NCBI GenBank assembly: GCA_019057865.1
Contig: JAHLWP010000033.1
Coordinates: 1-50,451 of the forward strand
Direction of reading: 5' to 3'
DNA length: 50,451 bases
From: Promethearchaeota archaeon
Lineage (GTDB): Archaea; Asgardarchaeota; Lokiarchaeia; Sigyniarchaeales; SOKP01
Part shown: positions 22,216-30,678 of the stretch, piece by piece
Numbering within the stretch: the stretch's first letter is position 1
Layout: every line of letters starts with the position of its first letter
Translations under genes and position numbers: made by a program
Notes under the pieces: generated by a model
The model's database searches: none
Told to the model about the DNA's origin: nothing
Seen by the model: only the letters and a program-made list of their open reading frames with translations

Positions 22216-24399
22216 TTGAATACAAAAAAAGATAATATTGAAGAAGAATATATCTTCGAGTTCTACGACGAGGATTATGCGGAATCCTTAGAAGAGGAAA
22301 TTCCTCAAATTGTAGAAGAATATAATAAGATTAATTTTGAAGAAGACTTAAATGATGAACAACTTGAAATCATCAATAACATTAAGGGACCAATGTTAGT
22401 TATTGCTGGAGCAGGAAGCGGTAAAACAAGAACAATTACTTATTCAGTTGCAAAACTATTGTTATCTGGAGTAAGGCCAAGTCAAATTATGTTAGTTACA
22501 TTTACAAACAAAGCGGCAGACGAAATGATCAAACGAGTTGAAGCACTTCTTGGAAAACGCCCTAAAGGCATTTGGGCCGGAACTTTTCACTCAATAGCAA
22601 ATCGATTCATACGAAGATATGCTAAAACACTAGGTTTAAAAGCAAATTATACAATAATGGACGAAACTGATGCAAAAGCATTAATGAAGCTTTCAATTGA
22701 GAAAACTAATGTAAAAGAAATCGAAGAACGCTTTCCTAACTCTAGAATGGCAAAGGCTATCTTGTCTTTTTCTATTAATTGTAGTAAGTCGATTCGAGAT
22801 GTTATCCTTTGGAAATATTCTCAATTTGAAAGTGAAAATGTTGTTAGAAAATTAGAAGAAGTCTTCAAAATTTATAGCACGAAAAAAGCTGAGGATAATT
22901 TAGTTGATTTTGATGACCTCTTGATATATTGGAATCAATTACTAGATGAAAGATCTGTTGCTCAATTAATTGCAAGAAATATAAAATATGTACTTGTTGA
23001 TGAATATCAAGACACTAATTATATCCAAGATGAGATTATATATAAAATAGTTAAGCAAAATCCAGAGCATAATGTAATAGCAGTAGGAGATGATGCTCAG
23101 AGTATATATGCATTTCGTGGAGCAAATTTCCAAAACATTTTGAATTTTGAAAAAAAATATAAGAATTGTAAGAAATATACGATTACGTATAATTATAGAA
23201 GTGTTCCACAAATTTTGGCTTTAGCCAATAACTCAATTCAATACAATGTAAAACAATTCAAAAAAACTATGCAGGCAACTCGTCCCAAAGGAATTTTACC
23301 CTTCCAAGTAAATGTTGGAGATGATAAAGAACAGGCCTATTTTATTGCAAATCAGATTTTAAATTTACGTTCAGATGGATATTCTTTAGAAGATATTGCT
23401 ATTCTTATCCGAGCTGGTTTTCATTCACTAAGAATTGAACTTGAACTAAGAGCTAAAAATATTCCATATGAAGTGAGAGCAGGAGTTGCGTTTTTTGAAA
23501 AGGCTCATATTAAAGACTTAATAGCCCATTTACGAATAATTGAGAATCCATATGATGAAATTTCTTGGTCTCGTATTTTTTCTATTATTCAAGGGATTGG
23601 TACTACTTCAGGTACAAAAATTTTTGAAGCTATTTCTAAATCTGAAAACCCCATTGATGCTTTAATTAATAAGATGTTCTATATTGAAAAATTAAAAGGT
23701 TCTAAAATACCCAAAGAAGGTATAAAAAATACCATCTCCTATGCTAAAAATATGGTAGGATTTACTCCAGAGGATTTGCCTTCTGAAGTTATTAAAAAAT
23801 TCATTTTAATCTTAGAAGATCATATCAAATCTAAATTTGATAATTGGCAAGATCGAATTGATGATTTAAATCAATTGAGTATATATGCAAATAATTTTTC
23901 GTCTATCCGTAAGTTTCTCGAAAATCTTAGCTTAAATTTAACCAATTTAGAATCTAAAACAGTTTTAGATGGGAGTCAAATTGAGGAAGAAAAACCTTTA
24001 ATTTTGTCTACTATTCACCGAGCAAAAGGCCTTGAATGGAGAGTAGTATTTATACCAATGTTATGCGAAGATTCCTTTCCTTCCTCAAGAGTTAAGGGTG
24101 ATCCTGAGGGATTTGAGGAAGAACGTCGTGTTTTTTATGTAGCTGTGACAAGGACTAAAGATCAATTATATTTGATTACACCCTCTATAGTTCAAGGGAC
24201 CAGAGGATATCAAGCTTTAAGAACTTCTCCTTTTATTTCAGAATTGAATCCAAAAGTATATAAAAGTTCATCCGTACAATTTAGATCCAAGATGAATGGA
24301 TTAAAAAGTATCTCTAAAAAACCCCAAAAGACATTTTTCACAACAGCAGACGAATTATTAAAAAAAGAAAAACCGATAAGAAAAAAGAGTAGAAAGTAG
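22216..24399 (+). CDS. uvrD: UvrD/PcrA-family SF1A DNA helicase with C-terminal FxxA-type tail
   Basis: AGAGSGKT, TFTNKAA, GTFHS, VDEYQD, VGDDAQSIYAFRGA, NYRS, STIHRAKGLEW and EERRVFYVAVTR. Confidence 0.93.
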   Translation: MNTKKDNIEEEYIFEFYDEDYAESLEEEIPQIVEEYNKINFEEDLNDEQLEIINNIKGPMLVIAGAGSGKTRTITYSVAKLLLSGVRPSQIMLVTFTNKAADEMIKRVEALLGKRPKGIWAGTFHSIANRFIRRYAKTLGLKANYTIMDETDAKALMKLSIEKTNVKEIEERFPNSRMAKAILSFSINCSKSIRDVILWKYSQFESENVVRKLEEVFKIYSTKKAEDNLVDFDDLLIYWNQLLDERSVAQLIARNIKYVLVDEYQDTNYIQDEIIYKIVKQNPEHNVIAVGDDAQSIYAFRGANFQNILNFEKKYKNCKKYTITYNYRSVPQILALANNSIQYNVKQFKKTMQATRPKGILPFQVNVGDDKEQAYFIANQILNLRSDGYSLEDIAILIRAGFHSLRIELELRAKNIPYEVRAGVAFFEKAHIKDLIAHLRIIENPYDEISWSRIFSIIQGIGTTSGTKIFEAISKSENPIDALINKMFYIEKLKGSKIPKEGIKNTISYAKNMVGFTPEDLPSEVIKKFILILEDHIKSKFDNWQDRIDDLNQLSIYANNFSSIRKFLENLSLNLTNLESKTVLDGSQIEEEKPLILSTIHRAKGLEWRVVFIPMLCEDSFPSSRVKGDPEGFEEERRVFYVAVTRTKDQLYLITPSIVQGTRGYQALRTSPFISELNPKVYKSSSVQFRSKMNGLKSISKKPQKTFFTTADELLKKEKPIRKKSRK

Positions 24400-24540
24400 A
24401 ATTTTTACGATACACTTAACTCATGAAACAAACTATTAATAGAAAACTAAATATTTATCTAAAAACTGTTAAATCTATTGAGTCTAAAAGAATTATTAGA
24501 AAAGAAGATATATAATTGAAAAAAAGCATAATTTTTAAAG

Positions 24541-25671
24541 ATGAGTGGTGAAAAAAGAAAAAGTCCATTGAAAGAATGTGTGGAATTTATAGAAGACCAT
24601 AAACTACGATATCAAAAAGAAGATGGAGCGTATGCTTTCAGCCCTGAGGAAGAAACTTTTGAAATTCAAGATGATAAAATCTTTGAGATTCCTAAGTGTG
24701 AAAATGCAAAAGATATTGGCTTTGTTGACGGAGGAAATGGTCCTATACTTAGAAGTGCAGATTTTAATATTAGTTTAAATCGTGTAGCGGGAGCTTTATT
24801 TACTAATAATGAATGGTATGACCCTACAAAAACCCCAGTCAAAATAGAGTTTTATAGCGCAACAGTTTTAGATCTTCTTGATGATAACACACTTGTTTAT
24901 AATACACGCTTTTTTCCTACAGAATCAGAATTTTCTGAGTATCTTCCTCAAGACGAATTAATATTTCCTGTTAGTGATCCAACTATAAGAGAAAGACTCT
25001 TCAGTATGCCAAATATTGAAGTTTTTGGAGGAATTGCGATGAGATTTGCGGAATGGACTTATGCGACAAAATTTATATCAAATGAATTAGAAGAAGGAAG
25101 TATTTTTGTGAGAGATGGTTCACTTCAAACTGGTTATACTGGAGAAACTGAAATTGCTGAAAATCTATATAAAATTGCCATCAAAAAAGGAGTTATAGTT
25201 ACAGGGCTTTCAAAAACTTGTCGTTTAATTACACAAAATGGAAATTCATTAAATTCATTGATTCATTATATTTGTAATAAGAAATTCCCAGATAGCGCTT
25301 GGTATTATCATCCTATATACAGAATTACAAAAGCTCAAGAAAAAGCTGATTTATATTTTGTAAAATTACATAAGAATTCACTTTATTCATTTCGGTTTGA
25401 TATATTATTAGATCAGGCAAAAAAAATGACTCAAGACCTACAGGAAATAATTATTTCTAACCTTGCTAATAATTCCAATGATTTATCTTATCCAGGGTAT
25501 CCATATGGTCTCATTAAAGCAGATCAATTAGCTGCGGTTAGTATAAAGGAACTAGAACCTCAGAAAATTCAATTAATTGCAGAATTTGATCAAAAAGGTT
25601 ATAATGAATTTATTCTACCTCGTTTACGTTCAGTAAACGCACATGATTTATTAAATATAATAAGAAAATAG
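24541..25671 (+). CDS. nurA: NurA 5'-3' nuclease
   Basis: FVDGG, RDGSL, GLSKT and PGYPYGLIKAD; first gene of a herA-mre11-rad50 cluster. Confidence 0.88.
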   Translation: MSGEKRKSPLKECVEFIEDHKLRYQKEDGAYAFSPEEETFEIQDDKIFEIPKCENAKDIGFVDGGNGPILRSADFNISLNRVAGALFTNNEWYDPTKTPVKIEFYSATVLDLLDDNTLVYNTRFFPTESEFSEYLPQDELIFPVSDPTIRERLFSMPNIEVFGGIAMRFAEWTYATKFISNELEEGSIFVRDGSLQTGYTGETEIAENLYKIAIKKGVIVTGLSKTCRLITQNGNSLNSLIHYICNKKFPDSAWYYHPIYRITKAQEKADLYFVKLHKNSLYSFRFDILLDQAKKMTQDLQEIIISNLANNSNDLSYPGYPYGLIKADQLAAVSIKELEPQKIQLIAEFDQKGYNEFILPRLRSVNAHDLLNIIRK

Positions 25672-25689: not shown

Positions 25690-27264
25690 ATGGGAGATTT
25701 AGGAATAAAAATTGGTAGTTTTGTTACCGGTTCTTTAGTTAAATTAATAATAAGACAAAAGTCAGATCAAGAATTTGAGCTAGGACAGCTTTTCATCGCT
25801 GGGAAGGATAGAAAAGAATACAGCATTTACCAAATTAAGGATTTATTTTTTGGAAGCCAAATTCCCGATAATATTCTTGAATTAATGGCAGGTTATGGAT
25901 TAGAGAGAGAAAGATCTGATTTAAAAATATATGAACCTGAATTGAGAAACTATGTTTTAGCTCTCGCTAGACCATTAATATTTGTTAAGGATAATAAATT
26001 GTACTTACCAAAAAAGTTACCAACCTTTTTCTCAGATACTTTTAATATTGATGATACCCATTTAGAGTTTTTTAAGGAAGAAAAAATTGAAAATCCCTTA
26101 AATTTAGGTAGAATTCGTTCTGGATCAAAAATTTTGAAAACAGAAGTGATACTTGAAGCAACAGATGTATTAAGACACCATATTCTAATTCCTGCAACTA
26201 CAGGTCGGGGTAAATCGAATTTAGTAAAAACAATTCTGTATGATTTGATGGAAAACGATTATTGCGGTAAATTAGTATTTGATCCTCATAATGAATATTA
26301 TGGAACTGGTACTCAAAAAGGATTGAAGGAACATCCCAAAAGTAACCAATATATAGATTTTTATACTATAAGAACAATTCCTGGGAAGCTCGATTTAAGA
26401 TTCAATGTAAAGTTAATAGAACCAATTCATGTAATGGGTTCTCTTAATTTTACTCAACCTCAAATAGAAGCTTTAATAGGCTTTTATCGATTACATAGAG
26501 AGAATTGGATTCAAGCAATTTTTAGTGACGATACTGGTTTATATCAAAGACCTCAAGGACTTCATGTAGGAACCTTAGATGTCCTTAGAAGAAGATTAGC
26601 CATTTTATTAAATTTTGGATTTGATGCGAATAATAACATTGTAGAGAATGGTATTTATACTTTAAATGGATATGAATCTACAATAAGTAATATTGTTAAT
26701 TCATTAATTAAAAGCAAAACTGTTATTGTTGATACTTCCTTATTTGAAGGAGCTCGAGAAATATTTGTAGCAACCATCATAGTTGAAAATATATTTAACG
26801 AATATAAAAGATTAAAATTTAAGGATCAATTAAAAGATAAACCAGTTATTACAATTGTCTTAGAAGAAGCTCCAAGAGTAATAGGTAAGAAAGTATTAGA
26901 AACGAGAGATAATGTCTTCGGTAAAATAGCAAGAGAAGGTAGGAAGTTTAATATTGGCTTAATTGGAATAACACAGTTACCAAGTTTAATAGATAGAGAA
27001 ATCTTGGCTAATATGAATACTAAAATTATTCTAGGGAATGAAATGGGTCCCGAGAGAAGAACATTAATAGAAAGTTCCGCTCAAGATCTTTCAGATGATA
27101 GTCAAACAATTGCAAGTTTAGACATAGGTGAAGCAATTGTAACATCAAACTTTACTAAATTCGCAATTCCTATTAAGATACCATTATTTGAAGATTTATT
27201 GGAAGGTAAAACTAATGAAATTAAATCCAATAAAAAAATAAGAAAAGTATCCCCAGGTTTTTGA
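25690..27264 (+). CDS. herA: HerA helicase/translocase
   Basis: N-terminal HAS-barrel-like region, ATTGRGKS (Walker A), FDPHNEY, LEEAP (Walker B), AREGRKF and ITQLP. Confidence 0.92.
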
Positions 27265-27271
27265 TTAAGCA

Positions 27272-28582
27272 ATGATCAGGAAGAAAAATAAAATGAAAGT
27301 TAAATTTGCTCATATTTCTGATGTTCATTTAGGTGCTTGGAGAAATGAACTAATAAATGAATTAGGATATAAGGCGTTTGAAAAAACGGTAAATACCATC
27401 ATTGAGGAAAATGTAGATTTTGTTATCATAAGTGGTGACTTATATGATGTTAGTAATCCAAAAGTAGATGTAGTCGATCTGGCAATAAGAGAGTTAAAAA
27501 AATTAAGAGATAATCATATACCTGTGTATGGAATAATGGGCTCTCATGACTTCTCCCCTTCTAATAAATCCATGATACGTCTTTTAATTACTGCAGGGTT
27601 GTTCATAAATGTCTCCAAAGGCGATATTACAGATAACAATAAATTAAAATTAGAATTTACAGAAGATCCCCAGACTAAAATCAAAATTACAGGATTACGA
27701 GCAAGAAAACGTAGCTTAGAAATTGAAGATTTTGAAATTCTGGATCGAGTAATCTTAGAAAAGGAAAGTGGTATAAAAATCTTCATATTCCATACATTAA
27801 TAAGTGAACTTAAGCCTATTGAATATAAAGATATGGAATCCGCTCCTAAATCACTACTTCCTTTAAATTTCACCTATTATGCTGGGGGTCATATGCATAA
27901 AACGGTGCCAGATAAAGTACGTAAAAATGAAAGATCCCATAAGATTGACAATAAGACCAAAATAATATATCCAGGGGGCCTTTATCCTGTTAATTTTCGT
28001 GAACTTGAGCAGTATCAATACGGTGGATTCTGTATAATCTCAGGTGAAATAGATATTCCCTCTGAATCTTCAGAATTAGAAGTTAAATATATAGCTATCA
28101 AAGTTAAAGAAGCTGTTCCTCTATATATCGATTGCAATAATAAATCTCTCCCTCAAGTAGAAGATATTTTGGAAGAAACAATTCAAAGTACAGAATTTAC
28201 GGATAAAATAGTAACAATAAGAATGGTGGGAACCTTAACTTCTGGAAAAACCTATAAAATAAAATCTGATGAAATTAAACAAAAAATTATGGATAAAGGA
28301 GCATATGAAGTCTTACTTAACAAAACAGCTCTAAGTACAAAAGAATATGCTCCTATAAATGTCTTGGTGGGAAAAACAAACCAAGAAATTGAAGAAACTT
28401 TAATCCATGAGCATGCTCAAAAAATAGATATTAAAAATCTTACCAAAAAAGATGTTGAAAATAAAATCCATGAACTTTTAACTGTCTTGGGCAAAGAAAG
28501 GGAAGAGGAGATGAGAGTCAGGGATTATAATGAATACTTGGAGGAGAATTTTAAAAGGATTTTCCAGCTAGAGGAGGAATAA
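27272..28582 (+). CDS. mre11: Mre11 nuclease (start may be the second ATG, 27293)
   Basis: HISDVHLG, SGDLYD, GSHD, FH, GGHMH and YPGG motifs. Confidence 0.92.
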   Translation: MIRKKNKMKVKFAHISDVHLGAWRNELINELGYKAFEKTVNTIIEENVDFVIISGDLYDVSNPKVDVVDLAIRELKKLRDNHIPVYGIMGSHDFSPSNKSMIRLLITAGLFINVSKGDITDNNKLKLEFTEDPQTKIKITGLRARKRSLEIEDFEILDRVILEKESGIKIFIFHTLISELKPIEYKDMESAPKSLLPLNFTYYAGGHMHKTVPDKVRKNERSHKIDNKTKIIYPGGLYPVNFRELEQYQYGGFCIISGEIDIPSESSELEVKYIAIKVKEAVPLYIDCNNKSLPQVEDILEETIQSTEFTDKIVTIRMVGTLTSGKTYKIKSDEIKQKIMDKGAYEVLLNKTALSTKEYAPINVLVGKTNQEIEETLIHEHAQKIDIKNLTKKDVENKIHELLTVLGKEREEEMRVRDYNEYLEENFKRIFQLEEE

Positions 28583-28588
28583 GATAAA

Positions 28589-29758
28589 ATGATAATAAAC
28601 TCGGTTAAAATAAAAAACATCAGAAGTATAAAAAGTTTAGATATTGAATTTCCATCCTCTACAATGCTCTTTTTTGGAGATATAGGGAGTGGGAAATCTT
28701 CTGTCTTAAAAGCAATTGAATTTGGGTTATTTGGAACGTTAAATGCAGCTGAATTAAGCGGCGATTCATTATTACGTAGAGGTGAAAATTATGGAAATGT
28801 TGAATTAACCTTTTGTATTGATAATAGAAAATATATTGTTCAAAGAGCTCTAAAAAGAAGCAAGGATGGAAAAATATACCAAGAAAAAGGAACTATTATA
28901 GAATTTAATGGTTCCAATACTATAGAAACCTCCTTAGCTATAACAGATTTAAGAAAGAGGATCTTAGAATTACTTAATTATTCAATAACACGGTATGAAA
29001 AAACGCAAAAAATTCCTATATTTAGGTACACGGTCTATACTCCTCAAGAACAGGTTAAGGAAATAATACTTGCTAAACCAGACGAAAGATTTGAAATTTT
29101 AAAGGAAGTTTTCGGTATAGAAAAATATGAAATTGCCCTTAAGAATGTTGATATCATCAAAAATTTACTCAATTACAAATTAAAGGAAATAGAAATATTT
29201 CTTGACACTATCGGGACCCCAGAATTACGTATTCCAGAAAGAAAAGAAGAGATTGTAATTCAGAAGAAAATGATTAGAGAAATAAAAAACAACCTAGACC
29301 AAAAGGAAAAAGAGATAAAAGGGGAGGAATCTAAAATTGATAAATTCCAATCAGAATTAACTGAGCATTCCAATAAAATGATTAAAATCGAAAGCAATCA
29401 AAATATAATTAGCAATGCAGAAAATTCAATTAAAAACCATGAGGAATCTTTGAGTATATTAATAGAAGAAATTATTAAATCCAACGAGCAACTAAAAACT
29501 TATCCTATAATACAACTCAGCACCAATTTAACAGAAAAACAATTAGAAAAAGAGCTTGAGATAAATAGAAAAGTAAAAACTCAACAAGAAAATAAGAAAG
29601 CAATATTAAATAAGAAGATTAAAAATATAGATAAACTTCTTAAAGAGGGTAAATGTTCTTTATGCGGACAGAAAATTCACGAAAAAGAGAGGTTTAATAA
29701 CGAATTAAATAACACAACAAAAGATATTGATGATCTTTCTAGCAAAATAGAGAAATAA
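28589..29758 (+). CDS. rad50: Rad50, N-terminal part (Walker A, Q-loop, coiled coil, Zn hook); frameshifted
   Basis: KNIRS, GDIGSGKSS, YTPQ and CSLCG hook; continues in another frame at 29761. Confidence 0.88.
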   Translation: MIINSVKIKNIRSIKSLDIEFPSSTMLFFGDIGSGKSSVLKAIEFGLFGTLNAAELSGDSLLRRGENYGNVELTFCIDNRKYIVQRALKRSKDGKIYQEKGTIIEFNGSNTIETSLAITDLRKRILELLNYSITRYEKTQKIPIFRYTVYTPQEQVKEIILAKPDERFEILKEVFGIEKYEIALKNVDIIKNLLNYKLKEIEIFLDTIGTPELRIPERKEEIVIQKKMIREIKNNLDQKEKEIKGEESKIDKFQSELTEHSNKMIKIESNQNIISNAENSIKNHEESLSILIEEIIKSNEQLKTYPIIQLSTNLTEKQLEKELEINRKVKTQQENKKAILNKKIKNIDKLLKEGKCSLCGQKIHEKERFNNELNNTTKDIDDLSSKIEK

Positions 29759-29760
29759 AT

Positions 29761-30678
29761 ATGAAAATATCTAAAAATGAGGTAGATTTAAAAAATTTGA
29801 GAGAATATACTCAAAATAAATTGCAAAGAGATTCATTAGAAAGCATTATTAAGGAAAAAAAGAAACGAGAGGTGGATTTAAAAGAATTAATCAATGAATT
29901 AAAGGAAAAAATTAAGAAAGGCGAAAAGGAAATAAGTACGATTTTGAAAAAATATGAAATAATGGATACTGAAAAGCTTATAGAATTAAAAAATAATTTA
30001 CAATCGAAGCTTTCTGAACAAAAAACTTTAGTTAATCAATTAAAATCAGAGAAAGCTGAACTTAGGGAGACATTAGGAAGTGAAAATACAAATCTAGTTC
30101 ATTTAGAATCTGACTTACAAAATTTACAAAATGATTTAATGAAAAAGCAAGATCTTAGAAAAAAGCTTGAGTATCTTAAAGATTTAAAAAATTGGTTGGT
30201 TAACGAATTTCAAGTTCTTATTAGAGATATTGAGCGGGAAATCTTAGCATATAGTGCCCTTCAATTTAATGAGTATTTTAAGGATTGGTTCAGAATTTTA
30301 GTGGATGATGAAAATATAGAAGTAGAAATTCAAAGGGATGACTTTCAGCCAACAATTACTGTAAATGGTTATGAATCACCATTTAGAGACTTGTCTGGGG
30401 GAGAGAAAAGTGCATTATCATTAGCTTATAGACTTGCTTTAAATAAAATCATAAATGAACGATATCATGAAATTAAAACAAAAGATTTGCTGATTTTAGA
30501 TGAGCCCACTGATGGTTTTAGCCAACAACAGATAAATAAAATGCAAGATATTTTTGAAGTGCTAAATACTGCACAAATGATAATAATTTCTCATGAAACA
30601 AATCTCGATTCTTTTGTAACCGACATATTTAATTTTAAAAAGGAAAATCATATAACTAAAGTTACAAAAGAAAGTTAA
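29761..30678 (+). CDS. rad50: Rad50, C-terminal part (return coil, signature, Walker B, H-loop)
   Basis: LSGGE, LILDEPT and IISH; one missing base at ...GAGAAATAAATATG... would join it to the upstream ORF. Confidence 0.88.
   Translation: MKISKNEVDLKNLREYTQNKLQRDSLESIIKEKKKREVDLKELINELKEKIKKGEKEISTILKKYEIMDTEKLIELKNNLQSKLSEQKTLVNQLKSEKAELRETLGSENTNLVHLESDLQNLQNDLMKKQDLRKKLEYLKDLKNWLVNEFQVLIRDIEREILAYSALQFNEYFKDWFRILVDDENIEVEIQRDDFQPTITVNGYESPFRDLSGGEKSALSLAYRLALNKIINERYHEIKTKDLLILDEPTDGFSQQQINKMQDIFEVLNTAQMIIISHETNLDSFVTDIFNFKKENHITKVTKES

Follow-up and report, generated by a model that had tools for sequence, protein, structure and literature searches.

A UvrD-type helicase from one family of Asgard archaea carries a conserved C-terminal peptide that resembles the RadA polymerization motif

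The window analyzed here is the whole 50,451-nucleotide (nt) stretch of contig JAHLWP010000033.1 from a Promethearchaeota archaeon (assembly GCA_019057865.1), and our subject is a gene within it that encodes a helicase of the UvrD/PcrA type with a disordered, basic tail. Near its end, this tail carries a nine-residue peptide that is conserved among orthologues and resembles the FxxA motif through which the recombinase RadA polymerizes. We lean, with modest confidence, toward the explanation that the helicase passed from bacteria into a single family of Loki-type Asgard archaea, that the enzyme gained a tail that docks on RadA, and that it remodels or removes RadA filaments. An initial annotation of the stretch had interpreted the gene as an Srs2-like regulator of RadA beside a resection operon, and the results described below support that interpretation in part.

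The helicase gene is an intact open reading frame (ORF), and both domains of the UvrD family exceed their Pfam thresholds. The UvrD-helicase domain (PF00580) matches residues 45-316 (E 8e-76; 255.8 bits against a cut-off of 23), and the UvrD_C domain (PF13361) matches residues 322-655 (E 1e-51; 176.7 bits against a cut-off of 25.6). The catalytic motifs, namely Walker A (G65-T71), DEYQD (D262-D266), G291-A303 and S598-W608, are invariant or nearly so in two alignments, one of close orthologues (A1) and one of 46 sequences that reaches down to 45% identity (A2). Judged by these residues, the helicase looks like an active enzyme of the UvrD/PcrA type. Its solved relatives, as identified by sequence, are all bacterial: PcrA (1pjr, E 2e-90) is the best match, and the others include Deinococcus UvrD (4c2u, E 7e-80), mycobacterial UvrD1, and UvrD and Rep of E. 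coli.

The final strand of the helicase core comprises residues 683-687 and is followed by a Lys/Ser-rich stretch and then by TFFTTADELLKKEK at residues 706-719. The translation agrees with the initial annotation that this basic tail contains an FxxA motif, which reads F-T-T-A from F708 to A711 (nt 24337-24348). A single occurrence of this kind is not significant at the level of sequence: within a crude ORF set from the 4.26-Mb genome, the pattern F.[ST]A.[DE][LIVFYW] was matched 13 times, and 16.8 matches are expected from composition. Three of the other matches were inspected and judged to be chance: two are metabolic enzymes (one resembling an acyl-CoA ligase, the other a flavoprotein oxidoreductase), and the third is a small coiled-coil-like protein that could not be assigned clearly to a family. 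This lack of enrichment is what one would expect if the peptide were a chance FxxA within a low-complexity tail and had no function.

The conservation of the motif across orthologues argues otherwise. We used three sets of orthologues, which consist of 120 homologues (70-96% identity), 22 complete loci from species-representative genomes, and 8 deeper sequences (45-55% identity). As the initial annotation had anticipated in proposing such a comparison, the motif is retained, and it is present in 149 of 151 orthologue tails, even where the identity of the core falls to 45%. The two exceptions are a protein with Y in place of F and a truncated protein. A logo built from 107 distinct tails (20-mers anchored on the motif) reads L-F-[KQT]-[TS]-A-[DI]-[DE]-L-[LIV]. 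The Phe occurs in all 107 of these motif-bearing tails and the Ala in 106, both being positions that belonged to the selecting pattern, and the Leu at +6, which the search pattern did not demand, occurs in 102. In the 46-sequence alignment, which is independent of the search pattern, A711 never varies and F708 and L714 each reach at least 90% conservation, whereas no position within residues 688-707 attains 90%. Orthologues of 45-55% identity retain NFITADKL, QFLTADELL or PLFT[ST]ADSLL after linkers that cannot be aligned, and many orthologues stop exactly at ...DLFKSAIDLL. A conserved peptide behind unalignable linkers suggests a short linear motif under purifying selection, and on these alignments its conservation clearly exceeds chance. 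The explanation by chance is thereby effectively refuted, and we give it hardly any weight.

One orthologue (L022, from Promethearchaeota isolate DZ2M.159) contains two tandem copies of the motif, G-F-K-T-G-L-D-L-I and E-F-K-S-I-L-D-Y-T, which carry Gly or Ile instead of Ala and recall repeated BRC units. The L022 genome gave just a 40% RadA-like match, which is not a canonical RadA.

In RadA and RAD51, the FxxA motif of the inter-domain linker drives oligomerization by engaging the adjacent subunit at its ATPase core (PMC4856416; PMC3374503), and the A-motifs of BRC repeats compete with it. More generally, an FxxA peptide within a disordered region occupies the pocket of the recombinase's own linker Phe (PMC11229353). 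The host genome contains two full-length RadA genes (L002 1225-2223, on contig C71, and L001 967-2220, on G000 contig C66), which encode proteins of 332 and 417 residues with the linkers G-F-K-S-A-D-L-I-W and G-F-K-S-A-V-D-V-W. Across 122 Asgard RadA sequences, the linker G-F-K-S-A-D-x-I-W-E-K-R is almost invariant. The tail matches the G-F-K-S-A of host RadA, which bears out the proposal of the initial annotation that it mimics the FxxA motif of RadA/RAD51. FKSA is also the commonest tetrapeptide among the helicases (37 of the 107 distinct tails) and is identical to the Asgard RadA tetrapeptide; FQTA, FTTA and FKTA come next, and FHTA is found in two tails. The likeness extends beyond the Ala, with an acidic side chain at +4 or +5 followed by a hydrophobic one at +6, which suggests that the peptide copies the polymerization motif itself rather than the BRC-repeat consensus. 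These features, together with the Phe and a small residue at +3, are also common to the motif of the wider RadA/RAD51 family (F-M-R-A-D-E-Y in Pyrococcus furiosus, 1pzn; F86 in human RAD51), and the string FMRADEYLKKR, which the initial annotation had quoted for Pyrococcus RadA, is correct according to the 1pzn alignment. The recombinase motif lies between two domains, whereas the helicase copy lies at the end of the protein. As a separate observation, the 417-residue RadA is extended at its N terminus by roughly 100 residues, which contain a C-x-x-C...H pattern and a long stretch of acidic low complexity, and a longer RadA form also occurs in related genomes (open frames of 432-444 residues).

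AlphaFold2 modeling of the full-length helicase from its own alignment returned a confident core, with a mean predicted local distance difference test (pLDDT) score of 80.4. Scores fell below 50 for residues 1-32, 690-710 and 717-727, and a short helix was placed at residues 711-716. The low scores of the tail suggest that it is not packed on the enzyme. For the complex, we combined the core of RadA-2 (residues 96-332; 35-row alignment) with the helicase tail (residues 686-727; 46-row alignment). Three runs gave an interaction prediction score from aligned errors (ipSAE) of 0.86-0.87; the best of 3 controls scored 0.02, and no docking of the tail was predicted on an unrelated control protein (score 0.00). 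In a benchmark, 58 of 80 solved complexes attained the ipSAE mark, as did 2 of 110 mismatched pairs; the counts apply only approximately here because our own alignments were used. The runs share at least 81% of their contacts, and the pLDDT of the partner is at least 53.

In these models, A711 contacts RadA residues 157, 164, 166, 169, 184 and 187, F708 contacts residues 156, 188-190 and 201, and residues 709-711 of the tail pair with the RadA strand 187-190. The tail residues that contact RadA are 707-712, 714-715 and 718. The contacted residues map to the published site of the FxxA epitope (PMC4856416; 1pzn alignment), and four of the published residues fall within the predicted interface. 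The initial annotation had proposed a prediction of the complex with host RadA as a check, and the outcome is that F708 and A711 are predicted to sit in the known FxxA pockets of the RadA core, a pose that the model may have reached by recall, as considered below.

Under the explanation we favor, the acquired helicase would have gained two disordered extensions, an acidic one at its N terminus and a basic one with a terminal motif at its C terminus. The Phe and Ala of this motif would enter the two hydrophobic pockets of the RadA ATPase core that normally take the FxxA of the neighboring subunit, and the helicase would be tethered to RadA wherever this site is free, which includes free RadA, oligomers, and the terminal subunit of a filament. 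The tail would compete locally with contacts between RadA subunits, and the motor, which translocates on single-stranded DNA (ssDNA), would then remove or remodel the RadA filament. Such an enzyme would be an anti-recombinase that acts like Srs2, UvrD or PcrA and that is recruited as RECQL5 or FIGNL1 is to RAD51.

Among known systems, Srs2 of Saccharomyces cerevisiae resembles the helicase in having an SF1A (superfamily 1A) motor of the UvrD type followed by a non-catalytic C-terminal region that contacts the recombinase, a contact that is predicted in our case, and the proposed outcome, removal of Rad51 or RadA from ssDNA, would be the same by analogy. The term Srs2-like in the initial annotation is apt as such an analogy only: the closest solved relatives are bacterial PcrA/UvrD and the nearest non-Asgard relatives are likewise bacterial. 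When compared with Srs2, the helicase tail has no PIP-like (PCNA-interacting protein) or SUMO-binding elements. We know of no description of the Rad51-binding region of Srs2 as a mimic of the FxxA polymerization motif. RECQL5 and FIGNL1 join an FxxA-type peptide to a motor that removes RAD51. Like the tail, the A-motifs of BRCA2 BRC repeats, RECQL5, FIGNL1 and MCM9 are F-x-x-A peptides within disordered regions (PMC11229353); the helicase differs from these systems in being archaeal and in having an SF1 motor of the UvrD type. The flanks of the tail motif, F-K-S-A-D/I-D/E-L, follow the F-K-S-A-D-x-I of RadA and not the BRC consensus. We took a BRC repeat of the BRCA2 type to be about 35 residues, mostly present in several copies, in which FxxA is joined by a further hydrophobic (LFDE-type) module. 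The logo of the tails has about 9 conserved residues and no second LFDE-type module, and the motif is present in a single copy save in L022; because the second module is missing, we do not class the tail as a BRC repeat. Its sequence, its context and its predicted pose fit the A-motif class of recombinase-binding peptides.

Bacterial UvrD and PcrA are the closest to the helicase in sequence and domain layout. They carry a C-terminal Tudor-like domain, and the helicase is unlike them in having a disordered basic FxxA tail and an acidic N-terminal extension. In the account that PMC13470658 gives of Veaute et al. (2005), UvrD and PcrA dismantle RecA filaments.

We also investigated how the helicase is distributed, using a match at E <= 1e-150 as the threshold. 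In the family to which the window belongs, 50 of the 54 genomes sampled contained the helicase. In another family of that order, 2 of 5 genomes gave matches, and those proteins end soon after the core, with no tail. The phylum's other 26 families, represented by 191 genomes, gave none. On this distribution, the tailed helicase is particular to a single Loki-type Asgard family and is not Asgard-wide; the initial annotation had spoken of Asgard UvrD orthologues, a wider scope than these counts allow. Some metagenome homologues bear the labels 'Thor', 'Hermod' or 'Heimdall', and these leave the restriction to a single family unchanged. The nearest non-Asgard relatives are bacterial proteins of about 40% identity from WOR-1, Acidobacteriota, Verrucomicrobiota and Patescibacteria.

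A FastTree phylogeny of 154 representatives placed the motif-bearing proteins in a monophyletic clade (support 0.997), whose sister consists of UvrD paralogues that have no tail and whose named members are Promethearchaeota or Lokiarchaeota. The tail is therefore specific in that it is missing from this sister clade as well as from the second-family matches and most bacterial relatives. The tail-less paralogues (P0125, P0171, P0176, P0251 and P0264) come from other Asgard contigs, and both paralogues are encoded on at least one contig (1.28 Mb, isolate LW40_45). The next branch contains two proteins that end in LFKRADEL and GFVRADEL. The protein that ends in L-F-K-R-A-D-E-L is an archaeal UvrD (P0193, L086 8001-9965) whose gene adjoins one encoding Nre_N and Nre_C domains and sits among archaeal genes (Archease, Nre and EMC3-like). 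The RadA linker in the LFKRADEL genome (L088 845-1813) is G-F-E-T-A-D-V-I-F. This archaeon represents a second, more distant lineage with the same arrangement, which fits the model that the tail docks on RadA.

Certain bacterial proteins of the same UvrD subfamily (P0139, P0153, P0172, P0177, P0196 and P0200) carry an FLxx[IV] peptide at the extreme C terminus after a long disordered linker (L052, L053 and L063; among the sources are small genomes of a Patescibacteria-like kind). This bacterial form lacks the [ST]-A pair by which the RadA-like version is defined. In three genomes with such tails, the RecA linker reads A-I-D-Q-I-K-E-[KR]-F-G; we compared AIDQIKE[KR]FG with SFL[RS]x[I][DE][DE]L and rejected the bacterial tails as mimics of the RecA linker, the likeness being too weak. 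That C-terminal peptides throughout the UvrD subclade, in its bacterial members too, are tuned to the resident recombinase, with F-x-[ST]-A for RadA and an Ile-centered F-L-x-x-I-D-E-L for RecA, strikes us as a long shot.

The bacterial peptides bear on two other explanations of the tail. According to the first, the peptide docks on a different hub, such as PCNA, RPA/SSB (single-stranded DNA-binding protein), HerA, NurA, Mre11 or Rad50, and its likeness to RadA is coincidental. Motifs that bind clamps or RPA typically take the form of short C-terminal peptides after basic linkers, the D-E-L-L of the tail, acidic and then hydrophobic, may resemble RPA-binding helices, resection genes are adjacent in some genomes, and the bacterial relatives, which have RecA and no RadA, bear a loosely similar C-terminal peptide. 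However, the C-terminal PIP boxes of the host are canonical Qxx[LIM]xx[FY][FLM] motifs, whereas the tail lacks both the Gln and the aromatic pair; a sequence comparison with host PIP boxes such as Q-V-S-L-D-N-F-F and Q-H-K-L-S-D-F-F, which are unlike the tail, led us to reject the reading as a PCNA-binding PIP box. Furthermore, the invariant positions of the tail (F, [ST], A, acidic, L) are those it has in common with the RadA motif, and no other DNA-repair protein of the genome ends in the motif, contrary to what a general hub motif would predict. We consider docking on another hub unlikely.

According to the second, the peptide is an intramolecular or self-association element, i.e., an autoinhibitory or dimerization tail, that was inherited from the bacterial ancestor. 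The C-terminal region of UvrD affects its self-assembly, a C-terminal F-x-x-x-[IV]-[DE]-x-L peptide is found in neighboring bacterial branches, and the basic tail could have a partner in the acidic N-terminal extension, which is conserved. In contrast, AlphaFold2 gives no confident docking of the tail on the core, and the Ala and Ser/Thr of the archaeal form are missing in the bacterial form. The zero score with the unrelated control protein also speaks against a self-association element, and we regard this explanation as improbable, more so than docking on another hub.

The N-terminal extension reads E-E-E-Y-x-F-E-F-Y-D-E-D-Y, and F14, E15, Y36 and F41 are invariant among close orthologues. 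Matches to bacterial proteins start only near residue 38 of the query. The extension may be a second short motif or may provide a counter-charge to the basic tail. In strains of runs X3 and X4, an in-frame GAA is inserted behind position 22239, within the extension.

The positions of the helicase features and of the neighboring genes are listed in Table 1.

Table 1. Features of the helicase gene and of the genes downstream of it (positions within the window).
Feature	Position	Strand	Description
Helicase gene, UvrD/PcrA-type SF1A	22216-24399	+	727 aa; TTG start; Pfam UvrD-helicase and UvrD_C
N-terminal extension	22216-22344	+	aa 1-43, before the Q motif; acidic, aromatic-rich; no counterpart in bacterial relatives
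Linker	24283-24333	+	aa 690-706; variable, Lys/Arg/Ser-rich, disordered; not alignable among orthologues and of differing length
Conserved peptide	24334-24360	+	aa 707-715, F-F-T-T-A-D-E-L-L; mimic of the RadA polymerization (FxxA) motif
Basic C-terminal end	24361-24399	+	aa 716-727 and stop codon; kept in some orthologues, missing in many
TATA-like element	24509-24516	+	TATATAAT; about 29 nt before the nurA ATG; read from sequence
nurA	24541-25671	+	Pfam NurA, E 9e-9
herA	25690-27264	+	Pfam DUF87/HerA, E 4e-17
mre11	27272-28582	+	Pfam Metallophos, E 2e-16, a family match consistent with Mre11; lies between herA and rad50, as in L007 and L014
rad50	28589-30678	+	two ORFs, 28589-29758 (389 aa) and 29761-30678 (305 aa); Pfam AAA_23, SMC_N and SbcC_Walker_B

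Pfam matches confirm the initial annotation that the helicase gene lies directly upstream of nurA, herA, mre11 and rad50 in the same orientation, with a spacer of 141 nt before nurA. A run of T directly follows the helicase stop codon within this spacer. The length of the spacer and the TATA-like element make a separate nurA promoter, and thus separate transcription, plausible, although in an AT-rich genome such an element is only a weak hint. A scan of the spacer for promoters and terminators gave counts equal to the shuffled expectation, the scan being a bacterial one that does not cover archaeal promoters. One metatranscriptome yielded a few small contigs for nurA, herA and rad50 but not for the helicase, which supports neither co-transcription nor its absence.

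The view that the helicase belongs to a resection operon fared less well across the clade. Homologues of the window's nurA (77-80% identity) occur in L007, L013 and L014, and these are the 3 of about 27 Asgard loci in which UvrD, nurA, herA, mre11 and rad50 follow one another in the same orientation; an upstream Fe-S/CCG gene is common to L014 and the window. In two further loci (L006 and L031), the arrangement is convergent, with the resection genes facing the helicase gene. In L008-L012, genes located 0.5 to 8 kb downstream are merely 23-30% identical to HerA and Rad50 of the window, and these could be a different HerA/SMC-type module at the same position. About 15 Asgard loci have no such resection neighbors within 8 kb. 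The linkage to resection genes, as judged from gene order, is suggestive and not a defining feature of the helicase.

The initial annotation had also listed rad50 among the downstream genes, which is correct as to its presence, but the gene is split by a 1-nt frameshift in the assembly, directly after the zinc hook (CSLC). In L007 and L014, rad50 is a single ORF of 704 and 694 residues, respectively. A contig from the independent run X3 has an extra T behind position 29754 that restores the frame, and contigs from the likely source run match the window; the split reflects either a true frameshift at strain level or an error in a homopolymer. At about 700 residues, the intact protein is short for a Rad50.

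The neighboring genes also bear on a variant in which the motif binds RadA but the helicase is a mediator or loader similar to BRCA2, which would bring RadA monomers to the ssDNA made by NurA, HerA, Mre11 and Rad50. The evidence for docking on RadA would serve such a loader equally, the gene lies beside resection genes in several genomes, and the tandem motif copies of L022 recall BRC repeats. However, almost all orthologues contain a single motif per protein, synteny with the resection genes is patchy, and the known enzymes of the UvrD family (UvrD, PcrA and Srs2) remove rather than load recombinases (PMC4999840). We judge a loader to have a small chance of being correct, similar to that of docking on another hub.

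Several observations weigh against our preferred explanation of a RadA-docking helicase that removes filaments. The next bacterial outgroups in the tree end in F-L-[RS]-x-[IV]-[DE]-[DE]-L, with no Ala, which suggests that the peptide may predate the archaeal clade and serve a partner other than RadA. The motifs of tail and RadA do not covary across genomes: RadA has almost always FKSA, whereas the tails have FKSA, FQTA, FTTA or FISA, and in this host the helicase has FTTA and RadA has FKSA. A conserved linkage with nurA-herA-mre11-rad50 was not found across the clade. Complexes of RAD51 with BRC4 (1n0w) and dozens of complexes of RadA with peptides (4b2i and others) have already been solved, and the model may therefore place any FxxA peptide in the pockets by recall. 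The complex score is thus a measure of likeness to solved complexes and not of binding by the peptide. Finally, the direction of the activity, stripping or loading, cannot be read from sequence.

We infer that the tail binds RadA in cells and that the outcome is removal of the filament rather than delivery of RadA. Docking of the motif on RadA, with the loader variant included, is probable, at a level that we would place between slightly better than even and reasonably likely. Removal of filaments as the outcome is more tentative and falls somewhat short of an even chance; we favor stripping because the characterized enzymes of the UvrD family remove recombinases.

In the literature, of which many subscription journals were not covered, we found no description of a link between an archaeal UvrD and RadA or of an archaeal helicase that bears an FxxA motif or is directed to RadA by a defined peptide, and the helicase is probably a regulator of recombination filaments that has so far gone undescribed in archaea. 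It may even be, at a probability we put just under one half, that mimicry of the recombinase motif to aim a motor at filaments is not exclusive to eukaryotes but had an independent origin in an Asgard lineage, on a helicase taken from bacteria, and that the helicase is the first prokaryotic counterpart of RAD51 control of the BRC, RECQL5 and FIGNL1 type. To our knowledge, the ways in which RadA filaments are restrained or remodeled in archaea have hardly been described. The reach of the finding is one family of the phylum, and the evidence is wholly computational. If the tail does bind RadA, it would offer a simple system for the study of anti-recombination, one that can be mutated at one Phe and one Ala and that sits in the closest prokaryotic relatives of eukaryotes. 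In that case, the principle used by BRCA2, RECQL5 and FIGNL1, which is to copy the motif that serves as the glue of the recombinase, would have arisen outside eukaryotes as well, and a horizontally acquired bacterial enzyme would have been rewired to an archaeal partner through the addition of a short linear motif.

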